Positions 11,408-31,265 of a DNA stretch of 64,000 nucleotides are shown one piece after another. The stretch's first letter is position 1; each line of letters opens with the position of its first letter. Source of the stretch: an uncultured Planctomycetota bacterium (GTDB taxonomy: Bacteria > Planctomycetota > Planctomycetia > Isosphaerales > Isosphaeraceae); assembly GCA_963823665.1 (NCBI GenBank), contig CAWGMQ010000004.1:1600001-1664000 (forward strand), given 5' to 3'. Below the pieces are notes generated by a model that was not told the DNA's origin, made no database searches, and saw only the letters and a program-made list of their open reading frames with translations. The translations under genes and the position numbers were made by a program.

Positions 11408-11717
11408 TCGTCGTTACACAGCATTGCCTTTCCGGCGCCGAGGGCAATCGGCGGCAACCGGAAGACAGTAGTATAGGGGACACCCGAATCCGCTGTCAAC
11501 GTGCACCGCTCGGTGGCTTATCGGCTGGCAGCCGGCCTCGGCTTCGGCCGTTCGAGGCCTCAAGCGGCAGTCGTCCCCGGATGTCCTCAGCTCATTCCTC
11601 ACCTTCCGCAGATCGGGCAAAGTGACGGGCTTCGAGCAACGACCTATTTCGGATCGCAGAGGTCTCCGCCATGATAGAGCCCCGCGATTTACCCACGGCA
11701 ATTTTCCGGGACCGCTG

Positions 11718-13544: not shown

Positions 13545-13781
13545 GGCGATGGGAATCCCTTCCTCCTCGCAACCGACATGACCGACAGCATCCTTGCTTA
13601 TCGGCGCGTGCGGATTCTATCGGCCGACCACGTTTGTGGGAACAGCAGGACCGTGATTCATTTGCACGCGGGATACACCTCAGCTCGCGAGCCCCGCCAC
13701 GGACCGGTGACTTGCCTCGCCCCTGACCACTTGCGCTCGGCTTCGTCCTCCTTTCGCACACTTAGCTCTCGCGGACCCCCA

Positions 13782-13901
13782 AAAACGTCGTCATCGTCGT
13801 CATCTCCTTTCCACAACAGGAGTTACGAATGACGACGTTTTCGAATCCGAAAAACTTTCGAAGTAACTCTTGAGACCCATTGATACTTACGAATGACGAC
13901 G
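13782..13901. repeat. Palindromic non-coding element with internal direct repeat
   Basis: Perfect 13-bp IR aaaacgtcgtcat (13782-13794) / atgacgacgtttt (13829-13841); 15-bp direct repeat ttacgaatgacgacg at 13823 and 13887. Confidence 0.75.
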
Positions 13902-14010
13902 CCTCTCGCACCGGGGCGCACCCCTCGTTCCGACGTTCCGCGTCGAAACGTCTCTCAGGCCGCTCCGCGGCGCGCTCGGCGATGACATCCCTGTGCCGCC
14001 TTCCGCGCCC

Positions 14011-14043
14011 CTCCTCCGTCCTCCGTCCTCCATCCTCCACCCT
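14011..14043. repeat. Short tandem heptamer repeat (TCCTCCG-like, ~4 copies)
   Basis: ctcctccgtcctccgtcctccatcctccaccct. Confidence 0.65.
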
Positions 14044-14074
14044 GCGCCCTGTGTCGGGCCCATCCGCCCACCAC

Positions 14075-14857
14075 TTCGTTTTGTAGATTTGACGATGCTC
14101 CTTTCCCTGTAAGGATTAAGGGAACGAATCAGCGCCAGTGTAGGTCAGGCTTCAGCCTGACGATTTCGCCACGCCCGTGCAAATGAAAATAGCCCTCACA
14201 CGACGACGAAGCTCCGCGTTGATGGTCACACACGCACACCACGACCGCGGCGTCCTCCGTAACTCCATAGGCGACTTGGGTTTTCGACCTCATCGAAGGT
14301 CTTTCACTCGTGGTAAAATGTGGTAATTAATGGTAATCCTCGCGAGAAATTCCTGCTTCTCTCTCGCTCTCCCGGGCCGGTCCAGCGCCCCGTTCTGGCC
14401 TTGTTTGACGACAACGCAACATGCAATCGCTCGCGCCACGGACCGATGCGAACCAGACGCCAAGGCGCTCTGCGCCCGCGATTGCGCTGGCTCACTCTGC
14501 ACAAGTGCAAGAGCGACTTGCGCTTTCGTCCATATTTCAGGTTCTTCAGGCATGGATCAAAATGATAGCAATGTGATAGCAAAACAAAGGCTTTTTCTGA
14601 TCCCACGCTCGCGGTTCTCTGCCCTGGCGCAGACCGCCCGGCGCATCCCTCGTGGACGGGTAAATGACGCGATCGAATCCTGACGTGAAGGGATCGAATG
14701 ACGCTCATCGGGAATGACGATCGGAAAAAGACATTTCGCGATGTGGTATTGGATGAGATGAGATTCCAGCCACGGACTGACCGGCATGGTTGCCCGCGCT
14801 CCGATTTCGTTTTGTAGATTCGTCGCGCGTCCTTACCCCACAAGGACTACGGGAACG
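14075..14857 (+). repeat. Dispersed 52-bp direct repeat, 2 copies (14075-14126, 14806-14857)
   Basis: Ungapped, 40/52 identical by eye; starts ttcgttttgtagatt, contains TCCTT-N7-AAGGA, ends ggaacg. Confidence 0.8.
14140..14161 (+). repeat. GTAG-type REP hairpin
   Basis: GTAG + GTCAGGC-TTCA-GCCTGAC, perfect 7-bp stem. Confidence 0.7.
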
Positions 14858-15057
14858 CACTCGCTCGGTCGAGAGGGCGATCCATCGGCCGAGCTCGAAG
14901 CCGAAACCTTCCCCTCGAGCACGTCGCTTTGATCAACGGGTCGAATGACGCTCATCCGGAATGACGATCGGAAAAAGACATTTCGCGATGTGGTAATGGA
15001 AGAGATGAGAGGAGTTTCGAGCCATGGACCAACCGGCATGGTTGCCCCCGGGCTCCG
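14694..15057 (+). repeat. ~110-bp direct repeat, 2 copies (14694-14803, 14941-15057)
   Basis: First 55 nt are 54/55 identical (tcgaatgacgctcatc...cgcgatgtggta); similarity continues through accggcatggttgccc...gctccg. Confidence 0.9.
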
Positions 15058-15248
15058 GTCCGCTTCGCGACGCCTTCCCGGCCGTCCGCGCCGACCACGC
15101 ACTCTCCCCCTAGTACTATTATGCGCGGGTTTTCGGCGTTGGCCATCTCTCAATCACACTTGTAAATCTGACGTCTCCGACAAAAGTTCGTCGAGTTTAG
15201 TTTTCTGCGCAAGTTAATGTAAAATCTGAGTTTATGTCCATTTCTCCC

Positions 15249-15277
15249 TTGACTCTAGCGAGGCGCACCTCTACATT
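15249..15277 (+). promoter_or_regulatory. Sigma70-like promoter of the transposase
   Basis: TTGACT-17 nt-TACATT, then AAGGAG RBS before ATG 15311. Confidence 0.6.
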
Positions 15278-15310
15278 CAAGTATCCCCTGCGAAAGGAGT
15301 TGCGCCCGCC

Positions 15311-17034
15311 ATGATCCACATCGTTGACCCGCGGCAAAACCGCCTGTTCGACCCCTTCGAGGGCGTCATACCTCCCGCCGGTCAACGGATCATCAGCTCG
15401 GGCTGGCAGGGAGTCTTTCGACACGTCCTCCTCAAACTGATGCCCGTAGGTCAACTGGCCCAGCATTTCAGCCGGGAACTGGGAGCCCCCACCAAGGAAC
15501 TGTACTCGATGGCCGGCTTGGTCTTCATGACCGACTTCTTCGACTGGACCGCCCAAGAGGCCGCCGAGGCTTACATCTTCCGCAGCGACGTCCAATACGC
15601 CCTTAACTTGGAGCCCGGCGTTGAAGTGTCGTCGCGCACGGTCGAGCGTTACCAAAAGCTCTTTCGCGAGAACGAACTGGCCGCTCAGGTCTTCCACGAC
15701 GTGACGATTGGACTGGCGGAAAAGCTCGAACTCGACATCTCCCGCCAGCGGCTCGACTCGACCCACGTCTTTTCTCACATGGCCAGCTTTGGTCGCACCA
15801 AGCTGATGGCCGTGGCAATCAAGCGGTTCCTGACCCAGGTGATCCGGCATGCCCCTGAGCGGTACGCCGCGTTGCCCGCGGAGTTCTGCGGCGCTACGAA
15901 CCGGCAGAATCGCAGTTGTTCGCCGCCGCCAAGGATGCCGAGGCTCGACAGCGGTCGCGGCAGCAAGCAGCCGAGGACTTGTGCTGGATCATCGACCACT
16001 TCGCCAATTGTCCCGACATGACGGCCCGGTCGAGCTACAAGGCCCTAGTCACGATCTTCAGCCAGCAGTGCGAACTGAGTGAGGGCAAAGTTGTCGTGAA
16101 GGCCAAGACCGGCGGTGACTGCGTTCAGAACCCGTCCGACCTCAGCGCCGGCTACGACGCCCACAAAGGTAAGGGCTATCAGGTGCAGATCACCGAGACG
16201 TGCAGCTCTGAGAACGAGGTGCAGTTGATCACAGGCGCTCTGCCGCAGGGTGCCGCGGAGCACGACGGCACGGCGGTGGTGCCGATGCTCGATCAACTCG
16301 AAGACTCGAAGTTGTTGCCCGAGGAGATGCTGGCTGACACGCTCTACTGCGGCGACGAGAACGTACAAGCGGCCGAGGACCGCGGCGTGGAGCTGGTCGG
16401 ACCGATCCCCGGTCGGGAGCCGGCAAGCGACCCTGGGGCGCTGACGCTGGACGACTTCGCGGTGGATGAACGGACCGGGCGGGTGGAAGCCTGTCCGCAA
16501 GGGCACATGCCGCTTGTGGTCGAGCGGAACGAAGAAGTAGGCACGACGCGAATCCAGATGGCGGCGGCAGCGTGCGAAGGATGCCCGTTCCGCACGTCGT
16601 GCCCGATCCACCAAACGCGGGATGGTCGCTACGAGCTGGATTTCAGTGACAAGGATCATCGGATGGCTGGGCGTCGCCGGGAACAAGAGACACCGGTATT
16701 CGCGGAGCGGTACAGGATGCGCTCGGGCATCGAGTCGACCAATAGCGGCTTGAAGAATCGGCTGAGGTTGGAACGTCTGCGAGTGCGAGGCCGCGGGAGT
16801 GTGTTCCGTGTGATCCTGCACAAAGTGGCGGGCTGGAACGTGCTACGGGCGGCAGCGTCGAAGAAGCTGCGCGCGTGGGTGAGCCGCGAAGTGGCCCAGA
16901 CGCTGAAAGGAGCTGAATCTGGGCCAACTGGGCGACTCTGCGCGCTCGTTCTGAGGCTGTGGGACGGTTTTCAGATGATTTTCCGCGGTTCTCACGGCTG
17001 TTCGGTTGATCTTGGAGGCTGTTGGGCCGCTTGA
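15311..17034 (+). CDS. DDE transposase (apparent frameshift ~15887)
   Basis: QRLDSTH; QNPSD..AGY..HKGKGYQVQITET; LADTLY; CxxCxxRxxCP; YRMRSGIESTNSGLK (YREK-type motif). One missing base in ttc[.]tgcggcgctac joins ORFs 15311-16021 and 15916-17034. Confidence 0.9.
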
Positions 17035-17693
17035 GCGTGCATCACTGACAATTCACAGGCGGCATTCTGTCGGCAGCGTCAAATCTATGTGTAACGCAGA
17101 AGTTCAATCGCGATAGGGGATTAACTGCGGTCATTCGGTTGAAATATTTGCATAAAGTTGAGCCCGTTCAAAGCGCTTTGAAACGGCATCCCGCCACACC
17201 CCCTGGGGGGCCAGCTACCCTCCGGCGGCCGAGACCAGGTCCGAGCGCCGAGGGATGCCAGCGCAGAGTGAAATGAAAACACCGCGTACGAACCACCCCT
17301 TCGTAGACGACGGCGTAGGGGAAAGCCGCCGCAGCGGCGAGACGGTCGTGGGCGCGCTGTTTTGTCCGGCGCGGCGGTTCGTGCGGCGTTAGCTGGCCGC
17401 ACCCTCATTGCGCACAGCCTCACACCACGTGTCGCCTCTGCCGCGGAGCCCAACAACTCTGCGATGCCCGCCGGGAGCGTGACGCTGCGATCATCGCTCC
17501 TGAGAGGCTCGTGTTCTGGTGCCCCGCCGTCGGGGCGCGGAGGCGAATTCGGAATTGAGGTTTGTGGCGCAGAGGCGCCGGATTACTGGTTAAGGATGTA
17601 CGTCCCCGTTGTTCGTAGGGGGCTCGCTCTTGCCGTACAGTGCCACCCTCGGCCGCGCAGGGCTCATTTGAGCGACGCCAAAGTCAGCACCCT

Positions 17694-20600
17694 CTACGGC
17701 GAGGTGCTGGCCGCGAAGTCCGCATCCCCGCCGTAAATGACGGTGATCGGCTTTTTCGATACGCTATTGGGTTTTACCGAAAGCGTGCCCGAGCCGCCTT
17801 TCAACGAAACGGTCCCCAGCTTTTTTTCGACCAGCTTCTTCTTCACCTTCACCTGGACGTCGAAGGTCGCCGTGCCCGTTGGCAGTCCCGCACCCGGGGC
17901 GACTGGCTGGACCTCGGCCGTCAAGCCGACGGACACGAGCTTGTGCTTTTTCTTGAAGACGGGCTCGGTGATCAGGACCACTTCGGTGGCGGCCCGAGTG
18001 ACCGACAGGATGCCTGGCTCGTAAGTGATCGCGTAATTGGGATCGATCGCCCCAGACGCCGTAATCGCGTAACCTCCCGCGATCACCGGGCTGAACGTCG
18101 AAGCGGTCGTCGATAGCGTCGGCAGGGTAGTGAAAGTTGCGGGCGTGTCGCCGTTGACGAGGCCGCTGTAGCTTGCCGTCAGGGTCTGGATCGCCGCGCC
18201 GTAGACCTTAGTCTGGCTGTTGGCGGTGATCGTCAGCGGGGCCGTGCTTATCTCGCCCACGGCGCCGCGGATCGAGGTGGAACTGAGCTGGTAGTCGGCC
18301 GCGTCGGGCCCAGTGAGGGTGAGCCCAGAGACCGAGACGGTCTTGCCGGTGCCGGCGTTCTTGCTGTCATAGACGGCGGCGGAGGGATCGTTGAGGACGA
18401 CGCTGTCGCCAGGGAGCACGCCGCTCAGGATGAAGTTTCCGGGCAGCAGGTCAGCGGCAATCGTGCCGTCGTAAGTCCTCTCCACCGTGCCGGTCAGGGA
18501 CGCGGTGAGAAATCGGGCGATGATCTTGGCATTCGTCGTCGGCGGGATGAGGGCATAGTCGAAGGCTTGCGCACCGCTGATCGTCAGCCCTGACACCACC
18601 ACTGAAACGCCGTTGCCGACGTCCTTAGACGCAAAGGTGCCGATGGCGCCAGTCGTGACCAGACTGACCGAGTCACCCGCAATCACCCCGGTGAGCGTCG
18701 CCGTGCCAAGGCCCGCGAGTGTGGCGTCCGTGGCGGCGTCATACACCTTGTCGTTGGCCGTAATGCCAGAGACCGTCAGCGAAGCCGCGGAGATAGTGGC
18801 CGTGGTCGCTGGCGGGATTAGCGAGTAGTCGCTTGCCTGGGCGCCGCTCAGGCTCAGACCGGAAATTTGCACGGCGATGTCGTTGCCGGCGTCCTTGGAC
18901 GCAAAGGTCCCGACGGCCTCTGCCGTGACCAGAGTGACGGAATCACCGACGAAAACCCCATTGAGTGTCGCCGTGCCAAGGCCGACGAGCGTGGCGGCCG
19001 TGGTGGCTTCGTACACCTTGTCGCTAGCCGTGATGCCAGAGACCGTCAGCGAAGCCGCGGAGATAGTGGCCGTGGCCGCTGGCGGGATTAGCGAGTAGTC
19101 GCGTGCCTGGGCGCCGCTCAGGCTCAGACCGGAGATTTGCACGGCGATGTCGTTGCCGGCGTCCTTGGACGCAAAGGCGCCGATGGCCCCTGCCGTGACC
19201 AGAGTGACGGAATCGACGCCGATAACCCCATTCAGCGTCGCCGTGCCCAGGCCGAAGAGTGTCGCGGTCGTGGTGGCGTCATACACCTTGTCGCTGGCCG
19301 TGATGCCCGAGACCGTCAGCGAAGCCGGGGAGATAGTGGCCGTGGCCGCTGGCGGGCTCAGGGAGTAGTCGCTTGCCTGGGTGCCGCTCAGGCTCAGACC
19401 GGAAATTTGCACGGGGACGTCGTTGCCGGCGTCCTTGGACGCAAAGGTGCCGACGGCCCCTGCCGTGACCAGAGTGACGGAATCGACGCCGATAACCCCA
19501 TTCAGCGTCGCCGTGCCCAGGCCGAAGAGTGTCGCGGTCGTGGTGGCGTCATACACCTTGTCGCTGGCCGTGATGCCCGAGACCGTCAGCGAAGCCGGGG
19601 AGATAGTGGCCGTGGTCGCCGGCTGGATCAGCGAGTAGTCGCTTGCCTGGGCGCCGCTCAGGCTCAGACCGGAAATTTGCACGGGGATGTCGTTGCCGGC
19701 GTCCTTGGACGCAAAGGTGCCGACGGCCCCTGCCGTGACCAGAGTGACGGAATCGACGCCGATAACCCCATTCAGCGTCGCCGTGCCCAGGCCGAAGAGT
19801 GTCGCGGTCGTGGTGGCGTCATACACCTTGTCGCTGGCCGTGATGCCCGAGACCGTCAGCGAAGCCGGGGAGATAGTGGCCGTGGTCGCCGGCCGGATCA
19901 GCGAGTAGTCGCTTGCCTGGGCGCCGCTCAGGCTCAGACCGGAAATTTGCACGGGGATGTCGTTGCCGGCGTCCTTGGACGCAAAGGTGCCGACGGCCCC
20001 TGCCGTGACCAGAGTGACGGAATCGACGCCGATCACCCCATTGAGCGTCGCCGTGCCAAGGCCAACGAGTGTGGCGTGCGTGGTGGTGTCGTACACCTTG
20101 TCTCTAGCCGTGATGCCCGAGACCGTCAGCGGAGCCGGGGTCACGGCAAAGGTAGGTGGATTGGTGACCACCGCGAGCGTGTAGTTGCCGCCCGCACTGA
20201 GCGTGCCCGGCGTGAAGGCATACTTGCCGACGGGGCTGGCCATCGTGGCAGACGTACCGAGTTCGCCGGTGAGCAACGAAGACGTGTCTCCATTGACGAA
20301 GCCGCTCACAGTAGTATAAGTCAGGGACGGCACGGCGGAGCCGTAGAACTTCGACTGCCCCGTGCTCGGCGTAACGGTCAGCGGAGCCGGGTTTACGATG
20401 ATGGTGTAGGGTTGACCGCCCGTGAAGCCGCCGCTATCGGTCGCCGTGACCGTGAAGGAGAACATCCCGGTGACGCTTGGAACGCCGCTCAGCACTCCGC
20501 CGGTTGCCAGGATCAGGCCGACGGGTAGTGCGCCAGCCGTGATGGCGAAGGTGTATGGCCCACCCGCGCTGCCTGTTTCCGTCGCCGTGATTGTCTGGCT

Positions 20601-23267
20601 GGAAGCGGTGCCGTACGTATCGTTCGGCAGCGTCGTGGGGCTCACGACGGGCTTCTGTACCTCGAACGCACCGATGTCGACGCTCCCGCCGCTGATGCGG
20701 GGGAATCCGCGCTGGTCGGTGGTCAGGGGATTACCCGATGCATCGACAGCCAAGGCGTTGCTGCCCCCGTCGATGGCGGCGCTGCCAGGCAGCAGCGCAA
20801 TGGTCAGAGTCGGTCCGCCGTTGTCCGTGAGCGTGCCGAGCCCGGGGTCGACGACGCCGACTTGGTTGCCTGCGACGTCATTAACCAGTCCGCCGGAGCC
20901 ACCAATTCCGACCAGGTTGTACGCACTGACCGGAGACACGGTGCCAGCGATGTCATCGGGCGTGGCGCCACTTCCGGTGCCGATGTTGTTGAGTGCGATA
21001 ATCGTGTTGTTCAGGATGGCTGTGCTCGAGGTGACTTGCAGCCCCCCGCCATCGCTGGCGACGTTGTTGTAGGCAATGGTGGAATTGGTGACCGTCAGCG
21101 TGCCATCGCTGTAGACGCCGCCGCCGTCGCTAGCGGAGTTGCCGCTGATCGTGCAGTTGATGAGCGCGGTTGTACCATCGTTCCCCACCCCCCCGCCGCT
21201 GTTTGTCGTTGAGTTTCCGGAGATTGTACAGTCGGTGAGCGTCGCCGTCCCTTTGTTATACAGGCCGCCGCCGTCGAGGCTAGTCGAGCCGTCAGTAATG
21301 GTGAGTCCCGAGATGTTAGCGGTCACGTCGGAGTCGACGTCGAACACGCGGCTGTCTCCTCCGCCGCTGATCGTCAGGCCACTAGTCGGACCGACGATTG
21401 TTACCGTCCCGCCGGTATCGCTCAGCTCGAGCTGGCCCTGCGTCAGGACGATCACCTGCGCTGCGGCGAAATCGAAGGTGATCATCGCGGCAGCGTCAAG
21501 CAAGTTGGCCAGGTTGACCGCCTGGCGCAAGCTCAGCTCGCCCGAGGACAAGCCGCCAGTTTCGTCGCTCGAGGTATTCACTACGAGGTCGGTGTGAGTC
21601 TGGAAGGCCCCGATGTCGGGGGGCGAGTCGAGCGGCTCGCCACGTTGGTCGGTGGTGATCGGCGTAGTCGTGCCTGGATAATCGGCGACGACGCCGTTGC
21701 CGATGGCCGCGCTGCCGGGAAGTAGTGCCATCGTCTGCGTCGGGCCGCCGTAAAATCCCAAAGTCGCGAGGTCCCGGTTGCCTGGGCTGGCGAAGATAAT
21801 GTGGTTGGTGCCGTTCTTGAGCCCACCGTATCCACCCGGTCCGACGAGGCAATAGCTGCTCGAACTACTGACCGATCCGTCGATGTCGCTGGGGGTGGTT
21901 GAGTTTAGCAGCGTGTTGCCGGAAATAATCGTATCAATGAGCATCGTTCCAACTTTGTTATACAGTCCGCCACCCGCGGCGGCCAAGTTAGCACTGACCG
22001 TGCACGCCGTCAGTGTCGTCGTGCCGATATCATAGATGCCGCCGCCATCCTTCGCGGCAGAGTTTCCGCTGATCGTGCAGTTGGCCAAGTTCGCATCGCC
22101 CTGACAGTGCACGCCGCCGCCGTTCCCGCTGGAGGAATTGCCATTGATCGTGCAGCCGGCCAGGTAGGCCCGCCCAGAACCGCCGACTGCGATCCCGCCG
22201 CCTTGCCCGCTGGAGGACGAGTTGTCGCTGATCGTGCAGTCGGTCAGAGTGGCCTTGCCGCCGCCCTCGTCGAGGCCGCCGCAAAATGTTGCCGTGTTTC
22301 CGCTCACGCTGCTGTCGGTCAACTCGAGTGCACCACCGTTGTTCCCAACGCCACCGTCGTTGCGGCCTGTGTTGCTGCTGATCGAGCATTTGGTCAAGTC
22401 CGCCATACCGGAATTGTATAGACCGCCGTTATACTTCGCGTTGTTGGAAGTCAGCGTGCAGCCGTTCATGGTCAGGTTGCCCGAGCCGTGGTTGTTCACG
22501 CCGCCGCCGGAATCCCCGGCGTGGTTGCCGCTGATTGTCGTGTTCGTCAACGTGGCCATGCCTCGGTTGTCCAGGCCGCCGCCGTAGTACCCGTCGGCGT
22601 AATTCTTTGTGACGGTGCAGCCAGCCAAGGTCATCGTGCCTCTGTTCTCAAGGCCGCCGCCCGTCCCAGTCGCCTGGGCGGCTGACGCGGTGTTACCGCT
22701 AATTGTGCAGTCGCTCAGAGTTGCTTCACCGTTATTCCACAAGCCGCCGCCCTCGTTGCCCTTGGTGGTGTTACCACTGATGATGCAGGAGTACAAGTTG
22801 ACTGTGCCGAGATTGTAGAGGCCGCCGCCGGGAGCGCCCTGAGAACCTCCGGTGATGGTGAAACCCGTTATCGAAGTGGTGACCTCCTTGTCGATCTCGA
22901 GAACTCGGCCGTTGCCGCCGCCGCTGATCGTCACGCCCCCCGCCGGGCCGTCAATCGCCTGAGTTCCGCTGGTGTTGCTCAGCTCGAGCTGCCCTTGCAG
23001 TGTGATCGTCTGTTGCGAGCCGATAAACATCGGAGCGAAGGCGATCGTGTTGGCAGTCAAATCCGCGTTGGCTTCTGCGATTACATATGGCAGCGTGCCG
23101 GGGCTGTTGGGGTCGTTGCCCGTGTTCATGACCGTGAGTAACGTTAGCAGTCGGCGCTGCTCCAGCTCCAACAGCCTGGGCCGTAAACAGCGCCGATTCA
23201 GCCGCCGCGGTCGCAAGCCCAAGATCCAATCGCGCCGCCGCCCGAAACCGGATGAGTTGTGAGTCAC
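17694..23267 (-). CDS. Giant extracellular protein: LExRxLL N-terminal motif, two beta-helix (choice-of-anchor Q-like) regions, Ig/MBG domains, tandem YDG domains, Lys-rich Ig-like C-terminus
   Basis: LLELEQRRLL; many GGGLxN / TISGN repeats; LLPGSAAI and TDQRG...DIGAF twice; DKVYDxTT repeats. GAGG RBS before GTG 23267. Confidence 0.85.
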   Translation of the reverse strand: MTHNSSGFGRRRDWILGLRPRRLNRRCLRPRLLELEQRRLLTLLTVMNTGNDPNSPGTLPYVIAEANADLTANTIAFAPMFIGSQQTITLQGQLELSNTSGTQAIDGPAGGVTISGGGNGRVLEIDKEVTTSITGFTITGGSQGAPGGGLYNLGTVNLYSCIISGNTTKGNEGGGLWNNGEATLSDCTISGNTASAAQATGTGGGLENRGTMTLAGCTVTKNYADGYYGGGLDNRGMATLTNTTISGNHAGDSGGGVNNHGSGNLTMNGCTLTSNNAKYNGGLYNSGMADLTKCSISSNTGRNDGGVGNNGGALELTDSSVSGNTATFCGGLDEGGGKATLTDCTISDNSSSSGQGGGIAVGGSGRAYLAGCTINGNSSSGNGGGVHCQGDANLANCTISGNSAAKDGGGIYDIGTTTLTACTVSANLAAAGGGLYNKVGTMLIDTIISGNTLLNSTTPSDIDGSVSSSSSYCLVGPGGYGGLKNGTNHIIFASPGNRDLATLGFYGGPTQTMALLPGSAAIGNGVVADYPGTTTPITTDQRGEPLDSPPDIGAFQTHTDLVVNTSSDETGGLSSGELSLRQAVNLANLLDAAAMITFDFAAAQVIVLTQGQLELSDTGGTVTIVGPTSGLTISGGGDSRVFDVDSDVTANISGLTITDGSTSLDGGGLYNKGTATLTDCTISGNSTTNSGGGVGNDGTTALINCTISGNSASDGGGVYSDGTLTVTNSTIAYNNVASDGGGLQVTSSTAILNNTIIALNNIGTGSGATPDDIAGTVSPVSAYNLVGIGGSGGLVNDVAGNQVGVVDPGLGTLTDNGGPTLTIALLPGSAAIDGGSNALAVDASGNPLTTDQRGFPRISGGSVDIGAFEVQKPVVSPTTLPNDTYGTASSQTITATETGSAGGPYTFAITAGALPVGLILATGGVLSGVPSVTGMFSFTVTATDSGGFTGGQPYTIIVNPAPLTVTPSTGQSKFYGSAVPSLTYTTVSGFVNGDTSSLLTGELGTSATMASPVGKYAFTPGTLSAGGNYTLAVVTNPPTFAVTPAPLTVSGITARDKVYDTTTHATLVGLGTATLNGVIGVDSVTLVTAGAVGTFASKDAGNDIPVQISGLSLSGAQASDYSLIRPATTATISPASLTVSGITASDKVYDATTTATLFGLGTATLNGVIGVDSVTLVTAGAVGTFASKDAGNDIPVQISGLSLSGAQASDYSLIQPATTATISPASLTVSGITASDKVYDATTTATLFGLGTATLNGVIGVDSVTLVTAGAVGTFASKDAGNDVPVQISGLSLSGTQASDYSLSPPAATATISPASLTVSGITASDKVYDATTTATLFGLGTATLNGVIGVDSVTLVTAGAIGAFASKDAGNDIAVQISGLSLSGAQARDYSLIPPAATATISAASLTVSGITASDKVYEATTAATLVGLGTATLNGVFVGDSVTLVTAEAVGTFASKDAGNDIAVQISGLSLSGAQASDYSLIPPATTATISAASLTVSGITANDKVYDAATDATLAGLGTATLTGVIAGDSVSLVTTGAIGTFASKDVGNGVSVVVSGLTISGAQAFDYALIPPTTNAKIIARFLTASLTGTVERTYDGTIAADLLPGNFILSGVLPGDSVVLNDPSAAVYDSKNAGTGKTVSVSGLTLTGPDAADYQLSSTSIRGAVGEISTAPLTITANSQTKVYGAAIQTLTASYSGLVNGDTPATFTTLPTLSTTASTFSPVIAGGYAITASGAIDPNYAITYEPGILSVTRAATEVVLITEPVFKKKHKLVSVGLTAEVQPVAPGAGLPTGTATFDVQVKVKKKLVEKKLGTVSLKGGSGTLSVKPNSVSKKPITVIYGGDADFAASTSP
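18518..20138 (-). repeat. Intragenic tandem array of six 270-bp (90-aa) YDG-type repeats
   Basis: gtcgttgccggcgtccttggacgcaaagg recurs at ~18879, 19149, 19419, 19689, 19959 (exact 270-bp period), with a more diverged copy at ~18610. Confidence 0.95.
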
Positions 23268-23716
23268 AGGATACCTCGAACAGAGCAGGTCGCTCGTGAA
23301 ACAGCAGAGATCTCTGCACAAATCTTCAAGTCTGGGGCGTCGAAGCCTACGATGGAGAATCTCAACGGGAGCGCAAGCCGCAACCGAGTCTCACCTTGCT
23401 CTCCAGATGCCGGATCGCGCACGATACTTTTGAGGAAAGAAACGGTTTCACGCGCGAACCTTGATGCTCCTCGCGTCGAACCTTATGATAGGACCACTGA
23501 ATGCGCGGAACGCCGGACGGCGCTTAGACTTCCCGCTGAGCATTCGGGGACGAGGAAGACCAGAACGCGGCGGCGGCATCCGGGCTGGCCGGAGCGTCAA
23601 CCGAATCTCTTTCTATTTGGAGTACGGAACGCGTAAGCGCGATTTCCGAAGAAAATCATCTGACTGTATAAGAGTCGTGCGATGCTGACTGCGTCCGCGC
23701 GGGGGAGCGCTCAAAG

Positions 23717-24355
23717 ATGAAGCTTCTCGAAGACGTATCGACGAGTCCTACGCTTCTGAGGGACGTAGGCGACTGGGGTAACCATCCCGCATGGCTGGCG
23801 TTCCGCGACCGGTACGATCCGCTGCTTCGACGCTGGTGCCGGGGCTTCGGCCTCGATGCGGACGGTATCGATGAGGCGTGCCAGCGCATCTGGACCGAGC
23901 TCGCGGATCGGATGAGAACGTTTCGCTACGATCCCACCCGGACCTTTCGCGGTTGGCTCAAGTGCCTTTGCCGCTGCCGGGTCATTGACCTGCTGCGAGA
24001 GCGCCGTGCAGATTACGCCGTGAGCCTCGACGCTCGCGATGACGAGCCGTCAGCGAACGAACGCGAGACCGTTGTTTCCCTCGCGTCAATCGAACCCGGC
24101 CAACTGGACACGGACCCCCTTCATCTCTTTCTCCGTAGCGAAGCCGAGTACGTCCAATCCGCAGTCAGGCGCCGGGTGCAACCCCGGACATGGGATGCTT
24201 TCTGGCTCGTCGCCGTGAGTGACTGGACCATCGCCCAGACGGCCAAGGCGTTGGGAATGACTCGCATCGCAGTGTACGCAGCCACGCAGCGTGTGAGCCG
24301 GATGCTCCGAGACGAAGGACTGCGCCGGTCGGAACGCTGGAACACAATGCGGTGA
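23717..24355 (+). CDS. ECF-type sigma-70 factor (STSPTLL type, kinase-associated)
   Basis: STSPTLL...AWLAFRDRYDPLLRRWC...FRYDPTRTFRGWL; WDAFW...TAKALGMTRIAVY (region 4). Confidence 0.85.
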   Translation: MKLLEDVSTSPTLLRDVGDWGNHPAWLAFRDRYDPLLRRWCRGFGLDADGIDEACQRIWTELADRMRTFRYDPTRTFRGWLKCLCRCRVIDLLRERRADYAVSLDARDDEPSANERETVVSLASIEPGQLDTDPLHLFLRSEAEYVQSAVRRRVQPRTWDAFWLVAVSDWTIAQTAKALGMTRIAVYAATQRVSRMLRDEGLRRSERWNTMR

Positions 24356-24382
24356 AGCATCCTTTGCCAGGAGTGTTCGATC

Positions 24383-26769
24383 ATGTCCCCCTGCCCGTCC
24401 GAATCGACGCTGAGGTGTGTCGGCAGTTCCGCGATCCCGGATGATCGATACGCCGCCATCGAAGAGCATCTCGAGGAATGCGAGCACTGCAACGCCGCGC
24501 TGGAGCGCCTCGTGCGTGCCGGTCTCGTAGACCCGGATAACTTGCCCAAGCGCGAAGAATGTCCACGTATACCCGGATTTGAGATCCGGCGGGAGTTGGG
24601 ACGTGGTGCGATGGGCGTGGTCTACCAGGCGTGGCACCCCCCCTTAAGCGCTTCGTGGCGTTGAAGATCGTTAGGAGTGGGCCGAACGCAGGCATTCGTG
24701 AGCGCGGTCGCTGGCTGCGCGAGGCGCGAGCGTACGCATGCGTTCGGCACCCCAACATCGTTCCTCTGCACGACGTGGGCGAGGCTGGCCCCTGGCTTTA
24801 TCTGGTACTGGAGTACATTTCAGGAGGATCGCTTAAGCATCGGCTCGAGACCCCCTATGCCCCCGCAGACGCCGCCCGGCTGTTAGAGACGATCGCTCGG
24901 GCCGTCGCTGCCGTCCATTCCGGAAACCTGGTCCATCTCGACCTCAAGCCATCGAACATCCTGCTTGACGTTGGTCCCGAAGAGTCGCGGGAGCAGGCGA
25001 CTCCCCGGGTCGGTGATTTTGGCATCGCTTACCGCTGGAGCGATCCTGATCTCAGCCTGGCGACGCAGAGCCAGTCAGGCCCGCTTGGAACGCCCTCATA
25101 TATGGCGCCGGAGCAGATCACAGGTGATCGAGACGCGATCGGACCGCCGGCTGACATCTATGGGTTGGGCGCGCTGTTGTATCATGTGCTTACAGGACGC
25201 CCCCCTTTCTCCGCCGCGTCGGTCGTTGAAACGCTCGAACAGGTTCGCAGCCAGGAGCCGGTGCCGCCGCGACGGCTCGTTCCGCAGATTCCCCGCGACC
25301 TCGAAACCATCGCGCTCAAGTGCCTAGCGAAGCATCCTGCGGGCCGCTACGCCTCGGCCGAAGCCGTAGCCGTTGACCTCCGCCGCTGGCTGGACGGCTG
25401 TCCGATATCAGCACGTCCGGTATCGCCGATCGAGAAGGTCTGGCGCGGGTGCCGCCGCCGTCCGGCAATCGCGGCACTGGCAGCTTTGCTCTCGCTTGCG
25501 ATCTCGACAGGCTTGCTCATCGCTATTCTGCTCTGGCGGCGTGCCGAAGCGGAGTGGAACCGTACCCAGGACGAGCTAGCCTTCATTAGCCGACTGCTGG
25601 AGGAAATCTCTTCGGTCGGCTCGAATTCATCGGGGCACCTCAGGGTCCTCAACCGAGACGAAGTCAGCTCAGTTCTTGAGCGAGCAAGAAACCACCTAAT
25701 CCGCCAGCGAATGCAGCGTCCCAATGATTTGGTGATACTTCGCCAACTAGCCGATGCGGACATCGCTTTGGCCCGAAGGTATCTTTCTCAAAAGAAGTTG
25801 AACCAGGCTCGGACCTTGCTCAACGAGAACCTGGAAACGTTAGATCATATCGAGCGGCTTGAGCCAGCGGACCTGAGGTCGCCACGCCGCAAGCTTGATG
25901 CACACTCGCTATTCGCTGAAATCGCTGAAACGGAAGGGAGGAACGAAGAGAGTCTTACGCATCTCAGCCGAGCCGTTGCTAGCGGCGAGGAAAGCTTGCG
26001 CTTCATATCGGACCCCAAATTAACCATTAAGGTTGCGTACTTGCGCTGGTGGCTCGCCGAGATTGTTCGCCGCCGAGGCGATGACGAAGTTGCGAGGTCC
26101 CTGATCTTGGCCAATCTCGAGATGCTTGACGAAGTGCCCGAAGCCGCGGCCAGTCCGGCAGTCACGATCTGGCGCACACTGGCGCGAATCGACCTCCGCG
26201 AATTCAAGGCCGCCATTCCACCTGTGCTGACGTCCCAGCCCCAGCAACCCGATCCGTTCACACGGCTATCCTCCCCTGCAACAGACTCGCTGGATGCCGA
26301 AAACTGGGCGGACTTGGTAGCCCGATGTTTGAACTGCGCTCTCAAGCCCGTCGTCCCTCCGGATCGGCATTTGTGGAACTTCACGGACTATTTGAGCCAA
26401 CGCATCGCACGGCAGCGCCGGCTTGGCCGGATCGATGAGGCGCGGCGTTCAGCGAGCCGCGTGCACGCATTCGCCCGCCTGATGGTCCTACGGTTTCCGG
26501 GCCAACCTGTTGCTCACCTTGCGATGTGTGAAGCATTTAAGCAAATGGCGAAAAACGCCTGGGAAGTGGACGATCGAGTTGCTGTAGAACACAACTGGAG
26601 GCTGGCGATCGACGAGGCCCGCCGTGCATTGTTCCTTGATCCCAATGACACTCGCGCCGGTAGCGAAGTGGCCGACCTGCAACACCGGATCGACAAGCTC
26701 GTTGCGTCCAAATCATCGCCAACTAACCAGGATCTCACGGCGCGGACCTCCAGCGAGACCGGGCGGTGA
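24383..26769 (+). CDS. Ser/Thr protein kinase with N-terminal HxxxCxxC (ZAS-like) motif, TM helix and helical/TPR-like C-terminus (frameshift in C7 run 24637-24643)
   Basis: CPSE...HLEECEHC; ELGRGAMGVVY in ORF 24383-24664; VALK, HLDLKPSNIL, DFGIA, GTPSYMAPEQ, IPRDLETIALKCL in ORF 24631-26769. C8 would restore the frame. Confidence 0.85.
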
Positions 26770-26831
26770 GAGAGCGGTAAGCCAGCGTCGCTCATTGAAA
26801 TTTCCCACTGGACAATGCGCCCCGGACACCC

Positions 26832-26859
26832 GATACTGATAAAAGGCATTATCATCCAA
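26832..26859. other. Candidate tyrosine-recombinase core site
   Basis: gatacTGATAA-aaggca-TTATCAtccaa (TAA-N6-TTA geometry), ~60 bp past the integrase remnant's stop. Confidence 0.45.
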
Positions 26860-26915
26860 ACACTGGATGACGGAATGTGGATGGAAATCGCTCGCCGGGC
26901 AGGAAGCCGCCCTGT

Positions 26916-27038
26916 TCACACCGAAATCCTGTCGACAACGCTGCGCATAATTTTCTTCCGCCGGCGGTCGTAGAGCCGCGTCGTGCGCGGGTCAACATGG
27001 CCCGCAAGGTTTTGCACGTCTTCCAGCGGCACGCCCTG
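26916..27038 (-). pseudogene. C-terminal remnant of a tyrosine recombinase/integrase
   Basis: QGVPLEDVQNLAGHVDPRTTRLYDRR (box II His and catalytic Tyr); the rest of the gene is absent. Confidence 0.85.
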
Positions 27039-27506
27039 ACGCGGAAAAGGACGCGGAAAAGGTGTCAGGAACCGATCATTCAAAGAATGGGTCAAACGAT
27101 CACCACAGCCAGCCTCGACACCCTCAGTGCCCGCAGCCCAGGACAATGGTGTCGCGCCGGTGAGTCTGGCCTCAGCGCTGGCGATCTTGGTATACCAAGA
27201 GAGACGTTCAGTCCAACAAAACAAACACCTGCTCGACCAATGCCATGAGTTCCCAAGACGAGTCCAGGATCAACCTCGGTGACCTGATCCAGACGCTCGT
27301 TCGTCAGCTCGACGCAGCGAGCCTTGTCATGACGGGTCGTGCAGTCGGCACGGCAGGCGTTCGAGGCTTGGGAGCGCGTCAAGGAGACCGACAACGCGCG
27401 GGTGTACCTGGCTTGCTTCCAGCTCTGGAAACGTTGGGACGAAGATCCGCGCTGACTGCGCGGCCCAAGCGGCAACGACACCTTCGCGACCTCGCAGCGC
27501 CGAGGA

Positions 27507-27746
27507 GCCAAACGCGACTTGCGCGGCCGCCTTGCCCTGAGACCAGCGCCGTCGGCAATGCGGTGCAGCGCGCACAAGCGAACTCACCCGACCTGCCGCT
27601 TGCTTGAACATGCGACCGAAGTCACGCACCGTGTGCACCCAATTTGATCGATCCACACCCGGCCGGTCCAGGATGGGAGCCAGGTCGTCTGGGATTGCCC
27701 CACGCTTGTCCCGCCTCAATTCCCGTCCCGTCCAATCGAGCAGCAT
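27507..27746 (-). pseudogene. C-terminal remnant of a REP-associated / IS200-like (RAYT-type) transposase
   Basis: LLDWTGRELRRDKRGAIPDDLAPILDR.G...W...VRDFGR.F..AAG, recognised from memory as the tail of this family; no HUH domain present. Confidence 0.6.
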
Positions 27747-27751
27747 CACCC

Positions 27752-27780
27752 TTGACTTTCCGGGCAAAAAGTCTGATACT
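27752..27780 (+). promoter_or_regulatory. Sigma70-like promoter with embedded inverted repeat (putative operator)
   Basis: TTGACT (27752-57), 17 nt, GATACT (27775-80); GACTTT-N8-AAAGTC at 27754-27773. Confidence 0.65.
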
Positions 27781-27808
27781 GGCAGGTGAAGAAACGGAGG
27801 TCCTCGCC

Positions 27809-28234
27809 ATGCCAGATTTCGCTGGTGCTCTAGGTGCCAGTAAAGCCGCATCGGCGTTACTGGTGCTGTTTATTCGCAGCAAGGATCGCCGCAACAAAGC
27901 CATCGACCAGCGGTACTGGGTTAAGGAAACGCTGAATGTGCTCGGCACGTTGTTCGGCGGCGCAACTGCCTTTCCACGCGGCGAAGGCGTTTGGCGTGAC
28001 GACGCCCAGGGCGGCAAGCTCTTGTTTGATAATCCGGTTGTCATCCAGTGCTACACCAGCGAGCATGTGATTGACCAGCAGATGCCCGCGTTACGGGACT
28101 TTCTCCACCGCATGGGCAGCGAAGCACGGCAAGGAGCTGTCGGACTGGTTATCGACGACGATTACCTTGAGATTGGCTTCCCACTGGAAGAAACCCCAAC
28201 GACCCGGCAACCGAAAGGTAAGAAACGGAGGTAA
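27809..28234 (+). CDS. Hypothetical protein, 141 aa, DUF3574/PII-like fold suspected (putative toxin)
   Basis: GGAGG RBS at 27796-27800; FGGATAFPRGEGVWRDD..GGKLLFDNPVVIQCY...MGSEARQGAVGLVID. Confidence 0.75.
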   Translation: MPDFAGALGASKAASALLVLFIRSKDRRNKAIDQRYWVKETLNVLGTLFGGATAFPRGEGVWRDDAQGGKLLFDNPVVIQCYTSEHVIDQQMPALRDFLHRMGSEARQGAVGLVIDDDYLEIGFPLEETPTTRQPKGKKRR

Positions 28235-28240
28235 ATCAAC

Positions 28241-28573
28241 ATGGCAAGAAACATCGACAAAATCGCCGCCGGTCTGGGCGCAAAGGTCGTCAGCAAAGTG
28301 CCACACACCGGCGGCGGCGCCTTCGGCGCAGCAAGGCTCGCCCGGATCGTCGCAACCATTCAAGCTCGCCTTGAGCCTGGACAAGGCATCCGCCCAGGCA
28401 GGCCAACCGACCCAAGCTGGGTCCGGCATCCCAAAGTGCCCATGAGCGACGCCACCAGACAGCGGCTTACCCGCCTGGCAGAGCAGAGCAGCACAAGCGG
28501 ACGCAAGGTAAGCCCCATGCAGATCGCCGCGCAAATCCTCGAGGATGCGTTGACCGGAATTCCAGAGCGGTAG
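28241..28573 (+). CDS. Small protein with C-terminal ribbon-helix-helix-like DNA-binding domain (putative antitoxin)
   Basis: GGAGG RBS overlapping the end of the upstream gene; GRP motif, strand PKVPMS, helices DATRQRLTRLAE and SPMQIAAQILEDAL. Confidence 0.75.
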   Translation: MARNIDKIAAGLGAKVVSKVPHTGGGAFGAARLARIVATIQARLEPGQGIRPGRPTDPSWVRHPKVPMSDATRQRLTRLAEQSSTSGRKVSPMQIAAQILEDALTGIPER

Positions 28574-28694
28574 CCGCTTGCGCGGAAACCCCTCGATAGA
28601 AGCGCGACACCACCTCCATGTCCCGCGCCACTCACTTCAGCCGCGCGTGCGATCTAGCCATCTTGTTTACGCGCTCGGTCGTGATCGAACGCCA

Positions 28695-31265
28695 TCACCT
28701 TCTCGGCAAACTCGAAGACCGGCCCTGAAATGGGTCTTCCGGCCAGGAATGCTTCGGATAGCGCCGGCGGAGATCTTTTCTGACCTGGTGGTACGTGGTT
28801 GTCCAGAAGCTCTTGAGGTCGTTCGTGATTTGTACGGGCCGATTGTTCGGGCCGAGAATGTGCAACAGGATGGGCACTCGCCCTCGGGCAACTCGCGGGG
28901 TTTCCGACCAGCCGAAAAGCTCTTGCAGACGCACGGCGAGGATTGGCGGCCGGCCTGGCTCATAAGCGAGTCGAGCCTGTCGCGTGCTGGGCAGGGAAAC
29001 GACCTGGGGCGCGCTCTCGTGCAACTCTCGGTTCTGAGCCGCGTTCAACCGGCCTTGCAAGAACGGAACGAGATCGGTTCGCTCGACCTCGTCAAGCCGT
29101 GATTTTCCTCGGCAGACCGACTCCAGTATCTCGCCGAGCACGTCGTCATCGAACGTGGGCCAGTTGAGTTCCGGCACCGCTCGGCTGACGAATTCGATTC
29201 GTGAGAGGAATTGTGCGGCCGCCGGGTTTTTCCGGAAAAACTCAGCAGCTTGCGGGTGAAGCGCTTCGATAAGATGCGATCCAGCCTGCTCAGACTCAGT
29301 GACAGCACCCGTGTCTTCTCGAAGAAGCAAGTCGTGATACCAGAGCTGGGTCGTGCTGACGACGCGCCGTCGCGATTCGTCGTATCGGGTCAACCGCTCA
29401 CGGCGAAGCTGAGCGGGAAAAAGCTCCTCGACCCATTCGAGCCGGACCATGCTCGCGAGCTTCACTTGTGCGTCGACCCGGGGGCCACGCCGATCCTCAC
29501 GCGCATCAATGGCAACAAAGAACTCGGCATCGCGAACGACGGATTCAGGAGCAAGGCAGACACCACGGCCGCCCACCATCACGCCCGTCCCGGGTGTGTG
29601 ACGGCGCCGGACGAGCCGATCCGGGTAAGCCAGCAGAATCCACTTGAGCAAATCCGCGTCGTCCTCGATGTTGTCCCGCGGCACGATCTCCGGCTTGAGC
29701 GCGGTACGATGACGGAGCAAATCGTCACGCAGCCTGGCAACCTGGTGTGCGGCCGCGTGATCGATGCCCCGACTCCGTAATGAGGGCGCGAACCGGGCTG
29801 CCAGCGCCTCGTCCAGCAGATCGAGGCGGTCAAAGATGTCAGACGCGGCATTCACGGCGCGCTCGCGGGCCGTCTGGCTGCGCGGCTGGCCAGGCTGTTG
29901 ACTGAGCCGGATGTCTTTCTCGGAAAGAAGAGCGGCGATCGAAGCACCCTCACGGGCGCGGCCGCACTCGCTCGCCGCGATGAACAGACGCGCCAGCCGC
30001 GGATGGACCGGCAAACCCAGCATGGCTTGCCCGAGCGCCGTGATTCGAGGGGATTCACCGGCGAGCGCCCCCAGAAGCAGAAGCAATCGCTCAGCCTCGG
30101 CCAGCCTTTCCGGTTTCGGAGCATCGAACCACTCGAATTGCGCGGGGTCGCGAACGCCCCAGGCATGGAGCGCAAGAACGGTGCTCGAGAGGTCGACGAG
30201 GTGAATTTCAGGCTGTTCAAACTCCGGCCGGCCACGGTGCTCGCGCTCGGACCACAGCCGAATGCACGTCCCCGGCGCTGTACGGCCGGCCCGACCGGCG
30301 CGCTGGTCAGCCGACGCGCGACTGATCCGGATTGTTTCCCAGTGGTCCATGCCCCTGGCGCCGTCGTAACGGACAGTCCGCGCCAGACCGCTGTCAAGCA
30401 CGGTGGTAACACCCTCGATCGTGAGCGAGGTCTCCGCGACGTTTGTGCTCAGAATGATCTTGCGGCGATCGCTCGGCCGCAGCGCGCGATCCTGTTCTTC
30501 AGCCGGCAAGGAACCGTGTAACGGAAGCACAACGGCATCAAAGCGCGCGGCGGCCGGCTCGAGACGTCTCGCGAGGCGCCGTATCTCTGCCATTCCCGGC
30601 AGAAAAACCAGCACGTGGCCCGTGGCCCCTCCCTTCAACAGCTCTTCTTCGATCAGGGGTGCGATTTGCTCCGCGTCAGCCGGCCGGTTGATGGGTCGGT
30701 ATTGCACGGTTACAGGGTGTACTCCCCCGTCGACTCGAACAATCGGGCAGGCGTCCAGATAATTCGAGACCGCCTCGGCGTCCAGAGTCGCCGACATCAC
30801 CATCAGGATCAAGTCCGGGCGCACGGTCTGGCGCACCTGTCGCAGAAAGGCCAGTGCCAGGTCGCTATTCAGGTTGCGCTCGTGAAACTCGTCGAGCACG
30901 ACCGCACCGATCTTTTCCAGAAACGCGTCCGCCAGGAGCTGCCGTGTCAGCACGCCTTCCGTGACGAATCTCAATCGTGTGCGCTTCGAGAACCGTCGTT
31001 CGAATCGAATCTGAAAGCCGACCTCCTCGCCCAGAATCCAGCCGCGTTCCGCAGCGATTCTTGCCGCGCTCGCGCGGGCCGCGACTCGCCTGGGCTGGAG
31101 CACGATCACGGATGGATACTCGGCCGTCAGCAGCCCCGATTGCAGGATCGCCGGCGGCACCCGTGTCGTCTTGCCGGAGCCTGGGGGCGCTACCAGGACC
31201 AGTGACCGCCCCGAAAGTCGATCGATGATCTCCGGAAGGCTCGAATCAACTGGAAGCGGGTCCAT
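28695..31265 (-). CDS. hrpB: ATP-dependent helicase HrpB
   Basis: APPGSGKTTRVP, QPRRVAAR, DEFHER, MSATL, TNVAETSLTI, QRAGRAGR; C-terminal LQELFG...RPVQIT.DL.SFW...Y..VRKDLRRRYPKHSWPEDP. Confidence 0.95.
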   Translation of the reverse strand: MDPLPVDSSLPEIIDRLSGRSLVLVAPPGSGKTTRVPPAILQSGLLTAEYPSVIVLQPRRVAARASAARIAAERGWILGEEVGFQIRFERRFSKRTRLRFVTEGVLTRQLLADAFLEKIGAVVLDEFHERNLNSDLALAFLRQVRQTVRPDLILMVMSATLDAEAVSNYLDACPIVRVDGGVHPVTVQYRPINRPADAEQIAPLIEEELLKGGATGHVLVFLPGMAEIRRLARRLEPAAARFDAVVLPLHGSLPAEEQDRALRPSDRRKIILSTNVAETSLTIEGVTTVLDSGLARTVRYDGARGMDHWETIRISRASADQRAGRAGRTAPGTCIRLWSEREHRGRPEFEQPEIHLVDLSSTVLALHAWGVRDPAQFEWFDAPKPERLAEAERLLLLLGALAGESPRITALGQAMLGLPVHPRLARLFIAASECGRAREGASIAALLSEKDIRLSQQPGQPRSQTARERAVNAASDIFDRLDLLDEALAARFAPSLRSRGIDHAAAHQVARLRDDLLRHRTALKPEIVPRDNIEDDADLLKWILLAYPDRLVRRRHTPGTGVMVGGRGVCLAPESVVRDAEFFVAIDAREDRRGPRVDAQVKLASMVRLEWVEELFPAQLRRERLTRYDESRRRVVSTTQLWYHDLLLREDTGAVTESEQAGSHLIEALHPQAAEFFRKNPAAAQFLSRIEFVSRAVPELNWPTFDDDVLGEILESVCRGKSRLDEVERTDLVPFLQGRLNAAQNRELHESAPQVVSLPSTRQARLAYEPGRPPILAVRLQELFGWSETPRVARGRVPILLHILGPNNRPVQITNDLKSFWTTTYHQVRKDLRRRYPKHSWPEDPFQGRSSSLPRR

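Follow-up and report, generated by a model that had tools for sequence, protein, structure and literature searches.

What do two small, closely spaced genes in a planctomycete chromosome encode, and how is their pairing to be explained? We address this question for positions 27,752 to 28,573 of a 64,000-nucleotide stretch of an uncultured Isosphaeraceae genome (the window, meaning the whole stretch analysed). Gene 1 (27809-28234, + strand) encodes 141 aa with a predicted S-adenosylmethionine (SAM)-lyase/PII-like ferredoxin fold and is the predicted toxin, and gene 2 (28241-28573, + strand) encodes a 110-aa predicted antitoxin and autorepressor. The original prediction, made from the letters alone, had described the pair as a toxin-antitoxin (TA)-like operon; the observation itself was confirmed, including two small genes of 141 and 110 aa lying 6 nt apart, which sequence and translations bear out, and the interpretation was partly supported. 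Our results point to a two-gene module, conserved in planctomycetes and several other phyla and apparently undescribed, which is probably a TA system of some kind, whatever its target. That it is a type II TA module with a SAM-cleaving toxin, the full chain, is our tentative proposal.

We collected loci with either gene as the query. Gene 2 stood directly downstream of gene 1 in 74 of the 76 GTDB loci found with gene 1, and both misses end at a contig edge. Gene 2 as query retrieved 372 metagenome loci; in the best 80 of these, gene 2 was preceded by gene 1, whole or as a remnant, 71 times (70 of the 77 with more than 150 bases of room). The neighbourhood survey that had been suggested as a check of obligate pairing supported pairing in both directions (74/76 and 71/80). 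In the phylum sample, six of the ten gene-2 matches other than the locus's own had gene 1 upstream and four did not. Gene 1 occurred in 10 of 301 phylum genomes, with up to 7 paralogues per genome, and in 28 of 121 family genomes; its hosts belong to Planctomycetota, Acidobacteriota, Myxococcota, Nitrospirota, Actinomycetota and others, with no RNA holder listed, and Isosphaeraceae are among the close named records, at 91% and 82%. A single-sequence search retained 1626 of 1712 candidates as gene 1 relatives and a profile search 4293 of 7194 clusters, and gene 2 was represented by 397 sequences at 50% clustering.

No third conserved gene was found among the 101 nearest long open reading frames (ORFs) of 54 loci, which were crude picks, and the flanks vary. 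The nearest ORF was a recombinase or transposase in 6 of these 54 loci, and many of the named flanks were housekeeping genes (IF-2, TatC, ArgJ, MlaE). Flanks of 28 loci (125 ORFs) gave a PADLOC match in 8, mostly to generic domains and once to a type IIG restriction-modification system; this tally has no background and was not used for defence-island association. Of the flank ORFs that were scanned, none was recognised as a cas gene. Six proteins retrieved as longer forms looked by eye like frameshift joins or upstream extensions and not true fusions, on weak evidence. In one locus (L047:4001-4686), the pair lies between infB (encoding IF-2) and a DUF503 gene with no upstream promoter or operator seen, and is thus inside a housekeeping operon. 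In another (L001:2959-3723), a 91%-identical pair lies near a contig start beside a resolvase, in a metagenome-assembled genome titled Acidoferrales, which reflects either a recent cross-phylum transfer or a binning error.

The layout of the locus suggests a single transcription unit. A sigma-70-like promoter (27752-27780, + strand) consists of a -35 box TTGACT (27752-27757), a 17-nt spacer and a -10 box GATACT (27775-27780), and it was the sole site of this kind in 27000-29500 (mean in shuffled sequences, 0.3). This single promoter and the 6-nt gap suggest that the genes are co-transcribed. The predicted operator (27754-27773) is an inverted repeat, GACTTT-N8-AAAGTC, that extends across the -35 box and the spacer and contains the family core ACTT-N10-AAGT. 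The ribosome-binding region of gene 1 (27789-27801, + strand) is a 13-mer with GGAGGT, and that of gene 2 (28220-28232, + strand) is the identical 13-mer within the last codons of gene 1, an arrangement that makes translational coupling of gene 2 to gene 1 likely. This 13-mer, AAGAAACGGAGGT, had been highlighted from the outset as a shared element. It has exactly two copies in the 64-kb window with up to one mismatch allowed (0.03 expected; none of 100 shuffles had two), and the second AAGAAACGGAGGT copy doubles as coding sequence for the final gene 1 residues. As a regulatory repeat of the module it was rejected: an exact 13-nt word was common to both ribosome-binding regions in just 3 of 55 intact pairs, and the duplication is therefore incidental, not defining.

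We then compared the upstream regions of 55 intact pairs, 22 of 77 loci having been set aside because they were broken or truncated or lacked an evident start. The promoter overlapped by a palindrome, as originally described, is present in the window, and its core, operator A (ACTT-N10-AAGT), stood upstream in 35 of 38 clade-A loci, in both outgroup loci and in 0 of 15 clade-B loci. Operator B, CGAT(C/T)TATAT-N1-2-ATCG over the -10 region, was found in 13 of the 15 clade-B loci and nowhere else (0 of 38 in clade A). Background frequencies in flank windows were 2/2111 for A and 0/2111 for B, and operator A was also present in 42 of 50 metagenome loci. Across the 35 clade-A sites, GACTT was invariant (35/35), with the A of the -10 box kept in 31 and its final T in 32. 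The predicted DNA-reading strand of gene 2 reads PKVPM in clade A and QRLVRL or QRQIAL in clade B. This change of operator with the gene-2 clade is consistent with autoregulation by gene 2 and is not statistical proof of it, because the patterns were derived from the very sequences scored and the switch maps to a single branch (support 89/80). A wider regulon was unsupported, with 3 matches to the operator pattern in the 16.5-Mb genome versus 2 for a reversed control.

Neither gene matched Pfam, NCBIfam or PADLOC models, no relevant Pfam family was found in any of 55 gene 1 members, and a profile search of PDB sequences with gene 1 gave no meaningful match. The view that gene 1 resembles no classic toxin held, with no match to a characterised TA family. 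The structural model of gene 1, built with 36 close sequences (pLDDT 68, pTM 0.62; the other four of five models below 45), shows a ferredoxin-like fold with an extra hairpin. Foldseek placed the SAM lyase Svi3-3 at ranks 1 and 2 (6zm9 top; E 5.9e-5 and 8.6e-4), followed by a ribosomal protein, PII-like, CutA and CPII proteins, the SAM-AMP lyase and the T3 SAM lyase. Among the 48,161 chains compared by VIA, 6zm9 likewise came top (Z 8.4, rmsd 4.3, 117 aligned). Gene 1 is thus predicted to belong to the SAM-lyase fold group, nearer to the phage SAM lyase than to PII proper. Structural matches among viral proteins were mostly uncharacterised phage proteins, and gene 1 matched phrog_3543 at E 1.4e-5. 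Proteins of a Planktothrix and a Bacillus plasmid (L111:2833-3285 and L112:2926-3270) carry the canonical G-x-Y, E and QE motif and bridge gene 1 to PHROG 3543.

The positions of the SAM-lyase pocket are strongly conserved in gene 1. Gly56, Glu69 and Gln104, numbered as in Svi3-3, are given as the only strictly conserved residues; in that enzyme, E69Q/A lose more than 1000-fold activity, Y58F fivefold and E105Q threefold (PMC7877911), and only E71 and Q108 of the SAM-AMP lyase are reported as structurally common with Svi3-3 (PMC12255297). Gene 1 members have G60 and W62 in 55/55, D74 in 55/55, Q108 in 54/55 and G109 in 53/55; the 21 distant paralogues carry D (18) or E (3) at position 74, and all of them keep Q108. 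The three homologues with Glu at position 74 (L092, L095, L105) are all paired. The span from G60 to D74 is 14 residues, a lyase-type length. The residue equivalence with SAM lyases comes from this spacing and from a DUF3574 alignment bridge, not from residue-level superposition: nine DUF3574 proteins align G, W/Y, E and Q in the gene 1 motif columns. On these comparisons, the predicted pocket is conserved with Asp in place of Glu, and gene 1 may cleave SAM. Judged by the models of these families, gene 1 falls outside DUF3574, PF23780 and PII alike. The early impression that gene 1 recalls DUF3574 and PII-like SAM lyases thus stood for the fold and failed for DUF3574 membership (0/55).

Gene 2 appears to consist of two parts. 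The N-terminal module (28241-28372, + strand; about aa 1-44) is conserved and comprises a helix, LGA, a Gly-rich loop and a helix, with helices at 5-11 and 27-43 in the model (pLDDT 71, pTM 0.44); it may be the part that binds gene 1. The C-terminus (28412-28570, + strand; residues 58-110, with GRP before it) is predicted, from the model, to form a ribbon-helix-helix (RHH)-like domain. The ten best VIA rows were RHH proteins over residues 56-110 (Z 3.7-4.2). For gene 2 the Atlas lists, at 0.91, a CopG-like cluster in which 22% of the members carry RHH_1, and among 52 gene 2 members RHH_5 matched 2 and RHH_1 matched 1, all weakly. Foldseek with the gene 2 model gave no match at E <= 0.001, and a profile search of PDB sequences gave no meaningful match. 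Of the proposed BrnA/CopG-type RHH identity, the RHH-like C-terminal fold held (VIA Z about 4), and BrnA was not matched. A likeness of FAGALGAS in the gene 1 N-terminus to IAAGLGAK in gene 2, seen by eye, had no profile support (E 0.4) and is an impression only.

Contact between the two proteins was weakly predicted. The complex of gene 1 and gene 2 scored 0.54 versus 0.01 for the best of three controls, its runs shared at least 61% of contacts, and partner pLDDT was at least 57. The mark used was reached by 116 of 157 solved pairs versus 2 of 215 mismatched pairs; at scores of 0.60 or below it was reached by only 18 solved pairs and by both mismatches.

Other partners of gene 1 bear on the same point. 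In a distant clade, a coupled partner of 47-94 aa in which no RHH was seen follows 14 of 14 gene 1 paralogues, as a neutraliser would. These loci (L090, L091, L096-L100, L103, L104 and L106-L110) come from three genomes, G092, G144 and G213, for which 5, 3 and 6 copies were counted as 6, 2 and 6 loci. The short partners have an acidic-hydrophobic helix, a Gly, a short strand and a basic low-complexity tail, and 13 overlap the gene 1 stop by 4 nt. Their likeness to the gene 2 N-terminus was noted by eye and set aside as an impression only (profile E 0.13, in another region). In four further loci (L078:537-1905, - strand, on G000:C10; L252; L253; L260), a second gene 1 paralogue (33% identity) precedes a partner of 313-326 aa that begins ISxILGS...GxF like gene 2. 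The N-termini of these long partners matched the gene 2 module weakly (E 0.049, probability 1.1%). Their large domain had no Pfam or PDB match, and their C-terminus resembles GIY-YIG to the eye, with no match found. At L092:1471-2249, the partner of a very distant gene 1 homologue, one without G60/W62, is an RHH protein unrelated to gene 2 (weak RHH_5 and FitA-like matches), an instance of partner exchange.

We also compared the decay of the two genes. In the 64 metagenome loci lying clear of contig edges (16 of the 80 were at edges), 41 pairs were intact, 17 had gene 1 broken, 5 lacked gene 1, and 1 lacked gene 1 and had gene 2 broken; after de-duplication at 95%, gene 1 was lost in 17 of 49 loci with an intact gene 2. 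The 74 genome loci comprised 56 intact pairs, 10 with gene 1 broken, 6 with gene 2 broken and 2 with both broken; one of the six (L074) is a divergent intact ORF, which leaves 5 of 62 for the reverse loss. Gene 1 was lost significantly more often (17/49 in metagenomes versus 5/62 for gene 2 in genomes; Fisher p 6e-4), in a test that spans two collections, each selected on its query gene, with non-independent kin. The five broken gene 2 copies all come from MFD-titled records and owe their breaks to indels of 1-2 nt, which may be assembly errors; we take MFD records to be long-read assemblies prone to such indels. With MFD records removed, the genome set gave 6 versus 0 (p 0.04).

Orphan copies of gene 2 were also seen. 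In the congeneric genome G301, the promoter and an intact gene 2 are kept and the sequence corresponding to window 27817-28139 (323 nt of gene 1) is deleted; this remnant adjoins an AbiEii gene, a weak AbiEi match and a Phd-like gene. In the genome of the window (G000; 16.5 Mb, 12 contigs, 92% complete), four remnants of gene 2 and an additional orphan stand with no intact gene 1 beside them. The four partial copies (L080-L083, G000:C4:1711566-1730805) lie 83-102 kb from the pair, lack gene 1 and are 90-92% identical; three follow an HTH_37 gene and share their first base (window 28354), a Phd/PIN TA pair is nearby, and the region resembles a TA hotspot that has been rearranged repeatedly. At L102 (G000:C10:560028-560431), the last 30 codons of a gene 1 paralogue precede an intact divergent RHH partner, and G301 holds an intact pair matching this orphan (L249).

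Taken together, these results would fit the following scheme. Gene 2 would dimerise through its RHH domain, bind the 20-bp palindrome that covers the -35 box, thereby repressing the promoter, and its residues 1-44 would hold gene 1 inactive. If gene 2 were lost, free gene 1, putatively a trimer, would split SAM, methylation would stall and growth would stop. In the T3 phage system, induced SAMase inhibits E. coli growth (PMC7877911; bioRxiv 2023.02.27.530186).

Several results weigh against a SAM-cleaving toxin held in check by gene 2, besides the two-collection design of the decay test and the single-branch operator switch. The gene 1 model is middling, and the VIA score for 6zm9 is less than 1 above the 7.8 obtained for a ferredoxin fold that is unrelated. 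Gene 1 could not be linked to SAM lyases at the sequence level: PF23780, whose model does match the T3 SAMase as a control, matched 0 of 55 members, no PDB match was obtained, and hhalign gave no alignment of gene 1 with the T3 SAMase; a separate PF23780 search matched nothing, controls included, and was uninformative. Relative to Svi3-3, gene 1 has Asp for the catalytic Glu69, Trp for Tyr58 and Gly for Glu105 (53/55), and the Tyr58-Glu105 pair that closes the SAM-lyase site has no counterpart in it (W62, G109), although SAM lyases themselves do not keep this pair strictly (PMC7877911). DUF3574 proteins share the motif, which therefore does not prove catalysis. In the genome set alone, 10 broken gene 1 copies versus 5 broken gene 2 copies was not significant (p 0.44), and an intact gene 1 beside a broken gene 2 was seen five times among 74 genome loci and four times among the 28 family loci of the same collection. 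The large domain of no named family that replaces RHH in the 313-326 aa partners fits a regulatory gene 1 as well.

One alternative is a TA module with another target, in which the inter-subunit pocket of gene 1 would act on a SAM derivative or nucleotide, or gene 1 would bind a host enzyme such as SAM synthase. All of the architecture, operator and decay evidence applies to such a module, and the Glu-to-Asp and Glu-to-Gly changes favour it, as do the cleavage of SAM-AMP by the same fold in type III CRISPR systems (PMC12255297) and the retained MetK binding of catalytically dead T3 SAMase (bioRxiv 2023.02.27.530186). However, the three strictly conserved positions (PMC7877911) are kept or conservatively changed in gene 1, Glu74 is present in L092, L095 and L105, and mutation of Glu105 in Svi3-3 has only a threefold cost. 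We regard another target as rather unlikely.

The genomic surroundings bear on the main rival. The original prediction had placed the cassette among integrase and transposase debris, and both fragments are there. A C-terminal fragment of a tyrosine recombinase (integrase) lies at 26916-27224 (- strand), with Phage_integrase matches below cut-off (Pfam E 0.011, NCBIfam E 0.025), and a multicopy transposase-like gene fragment lies at 27327-27701 (- strand), with 34 matches in its own genome. The latter gave no Pfam match; by its motif it resembles the end of a Y1/HUH-type transposase. Pfam gave no name to two full-length copies of this gene. The pair stands at the right end, beside hrpB, of a variable segment of about 15 kb (13672-28729) that is absent from the matching site of G301, where the counterpart of window 10652-13671 meets that of position 28730 and beyond within about 170 nt. 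This segment also contains an insertion-sequence-like transposase with a frameshift (15311-17034), a surface protein of 1875 aa made of repeats (17694-23321, - strand), an extracytoplasmic function sigma factor (23717-24355) and a Ser/Thr kinase split across two frames (24383-26769).

An anti-defence cassette, a reading added here to those of the original prediction, would make gene 1 an anti-restriction or anti-BREX SAM lyase expressed in a burst on entering a naive cell and gene 2 an Aca-like autorepressor, with no need for binding between them. The position at the end of the variable segment and the 6 of 54 loci with a recombinase or transposase as nearest ORF agree with this, and loss of the repressor would likewise be costly. 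However, no relative was found in IMG/VR viral contigs and no phage or plasmid record found covers 80% of gene 1, in viral, phage and plasmid collections that probably hold few planctomycete elements. Many named flanks are housekeeping genes and the cassette always has two genes; the conserved N-terminal module, the RHH-less short partners and the weak complex pass would all be unneeded. In favour of the cassette, an action against restriction and BREX is established for SAM lyases (PMC7877911; bioRxiv 2023.02.27.530186), and the layout is that of Aca14 operons (PMC13551039). On balance we consider this cassette unlikely. A sensor-effector pair, akin to the sensor-and-repressor alternative of the original prediction, in which gene 1 would be a non-toxic PII-like sensor of SAM, methylthioadenosine (MTA) or a nucleotide that binds the N-terminal module and switches the attached domain (the RHH repressor in this pair, a larger one elsewhere), draws on the PII, CutA and CPII rows after the SAM lyase, the altered catalytic residues and the similar-looking module heading the four long partners, but is quite improbable: with no regulon and no third gene, the RHH version would regulate only itself, and biased gene 1 loss and 47-94 aa partners lacking an effector domain would be left unexplained.

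A wider form of the SAM-cleaving TA proposal holds that a phage anti-restriction SAM lyase became the toxin of a widespread TA superfamily, the first TA toxin to destroy SAM, with its antidote module rewired to several outputs. This helix-Gly-strand module would exist in three forms: by itself (47-94 aa), joined to an RHH repressor whose operators differ by clade, and joined to a domain of 270 aa and no named family. We consider this wider form doubtful. Toxins that deplete nicotinamide adenine dinucleotide or nucleotides are known, and a SAM-cleaving toxin, if true, would add a mechanism and show what a large family of 4293 clusters, so far unannotated, does in the cell. Gene 2 would then be a naturally occurring protein that inhibits a SAM lyase, bearing on host counters to phage SAMases. 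If instead the anti-defence cassette holds, the pair would be a chromosomal, self-repressed anti-restriction cassette. Through the pair, the roles of DUF3574 and PHROG 3543, both families of unknown function, could also be approached.

Among known systems, the SAM lyases Svi3-3 (PDB 6ZM9/6ZNB) and T3 gp0.3 SAMase (PF23780; PDB 7OCK, 8BB1) are closest in fold, Svi3-3 being the top structural match in two programs. Lyases of this type are homotrimers whose sites lie between subunits, and they turn SAM into MTA and homoserine lactone. Gene 1 shares the Gly-x-aromatic, acid and Gln positions of Svi3-3 at a spacing of 14/34 versus 13/35, and differs from these lyases in its 14% identity and its lack of a PF23780 match. 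Unlike phage anti-restriction SAM lyase genes, it is chromosomal and coupled to a dedicated partner gene. The SAM-AMP lyase of CorA-associated type III CRISPR systems (PDB 9GAB/9GAD; PMC12255297) has the same fold class (Foldseek E 4.6e-3), and its E71 and Q108 are positions kept in gene 1; this enzyme clears a CRISPR second messenger, whereas the scanned gene 1 flanks contained no identified cas gene. PII signal proteins have a T-loop of more than 20 residues (PMC12255297), unlike gene 1, in which G60 to D74 spans 14 residues and which has no PII model match in Pfam or NCBIfam. In acr-aca operons with Aca14 (PMC13551039), the effector comes first, an RHH autorepressor second and an inverted repeat lies over the promoter, as here; Aca14 has 66 aa, varied cargo and a location on mobile elements, whereas here the cargo is fixed, gene 2 carries a conserved module of 44 aa in addition, and viral contigs yielded no copy.

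The motif columns of DUF3574 (PF12098) align with those of gene 1, at a weak profile score (hhalign E 0.0063, probability 2.6%), and DUF3574 was also the Atlas lead for gene 1 (0.88, with DUF3574 on 12% of members). Unlike gene 1, DUF3574 keeps Glu and QE, and PF12098 matched 0 of 55 gene 1 members in a search whose control protein matched at E 9.5e-38. We found no SAM-lyase-fold or SAM-cleaving TA toxin, nor this gene pair, in the literature, in which supplements or subscription-journal catalogues could hold the family. Toxin-first type II TA operons with RHH antitoxins are known from the BrnTA and CopASO/ParESO types. The pair departs from them in that gene 1 matches no known toxin family and gene 2 does not match BrnA, and it resembles them in its two small coupled genes with the toxin candidate first, its C-terminal RHH-like domain, its promoter palindrome, its patchy spread and its orphan gene-2 copies.

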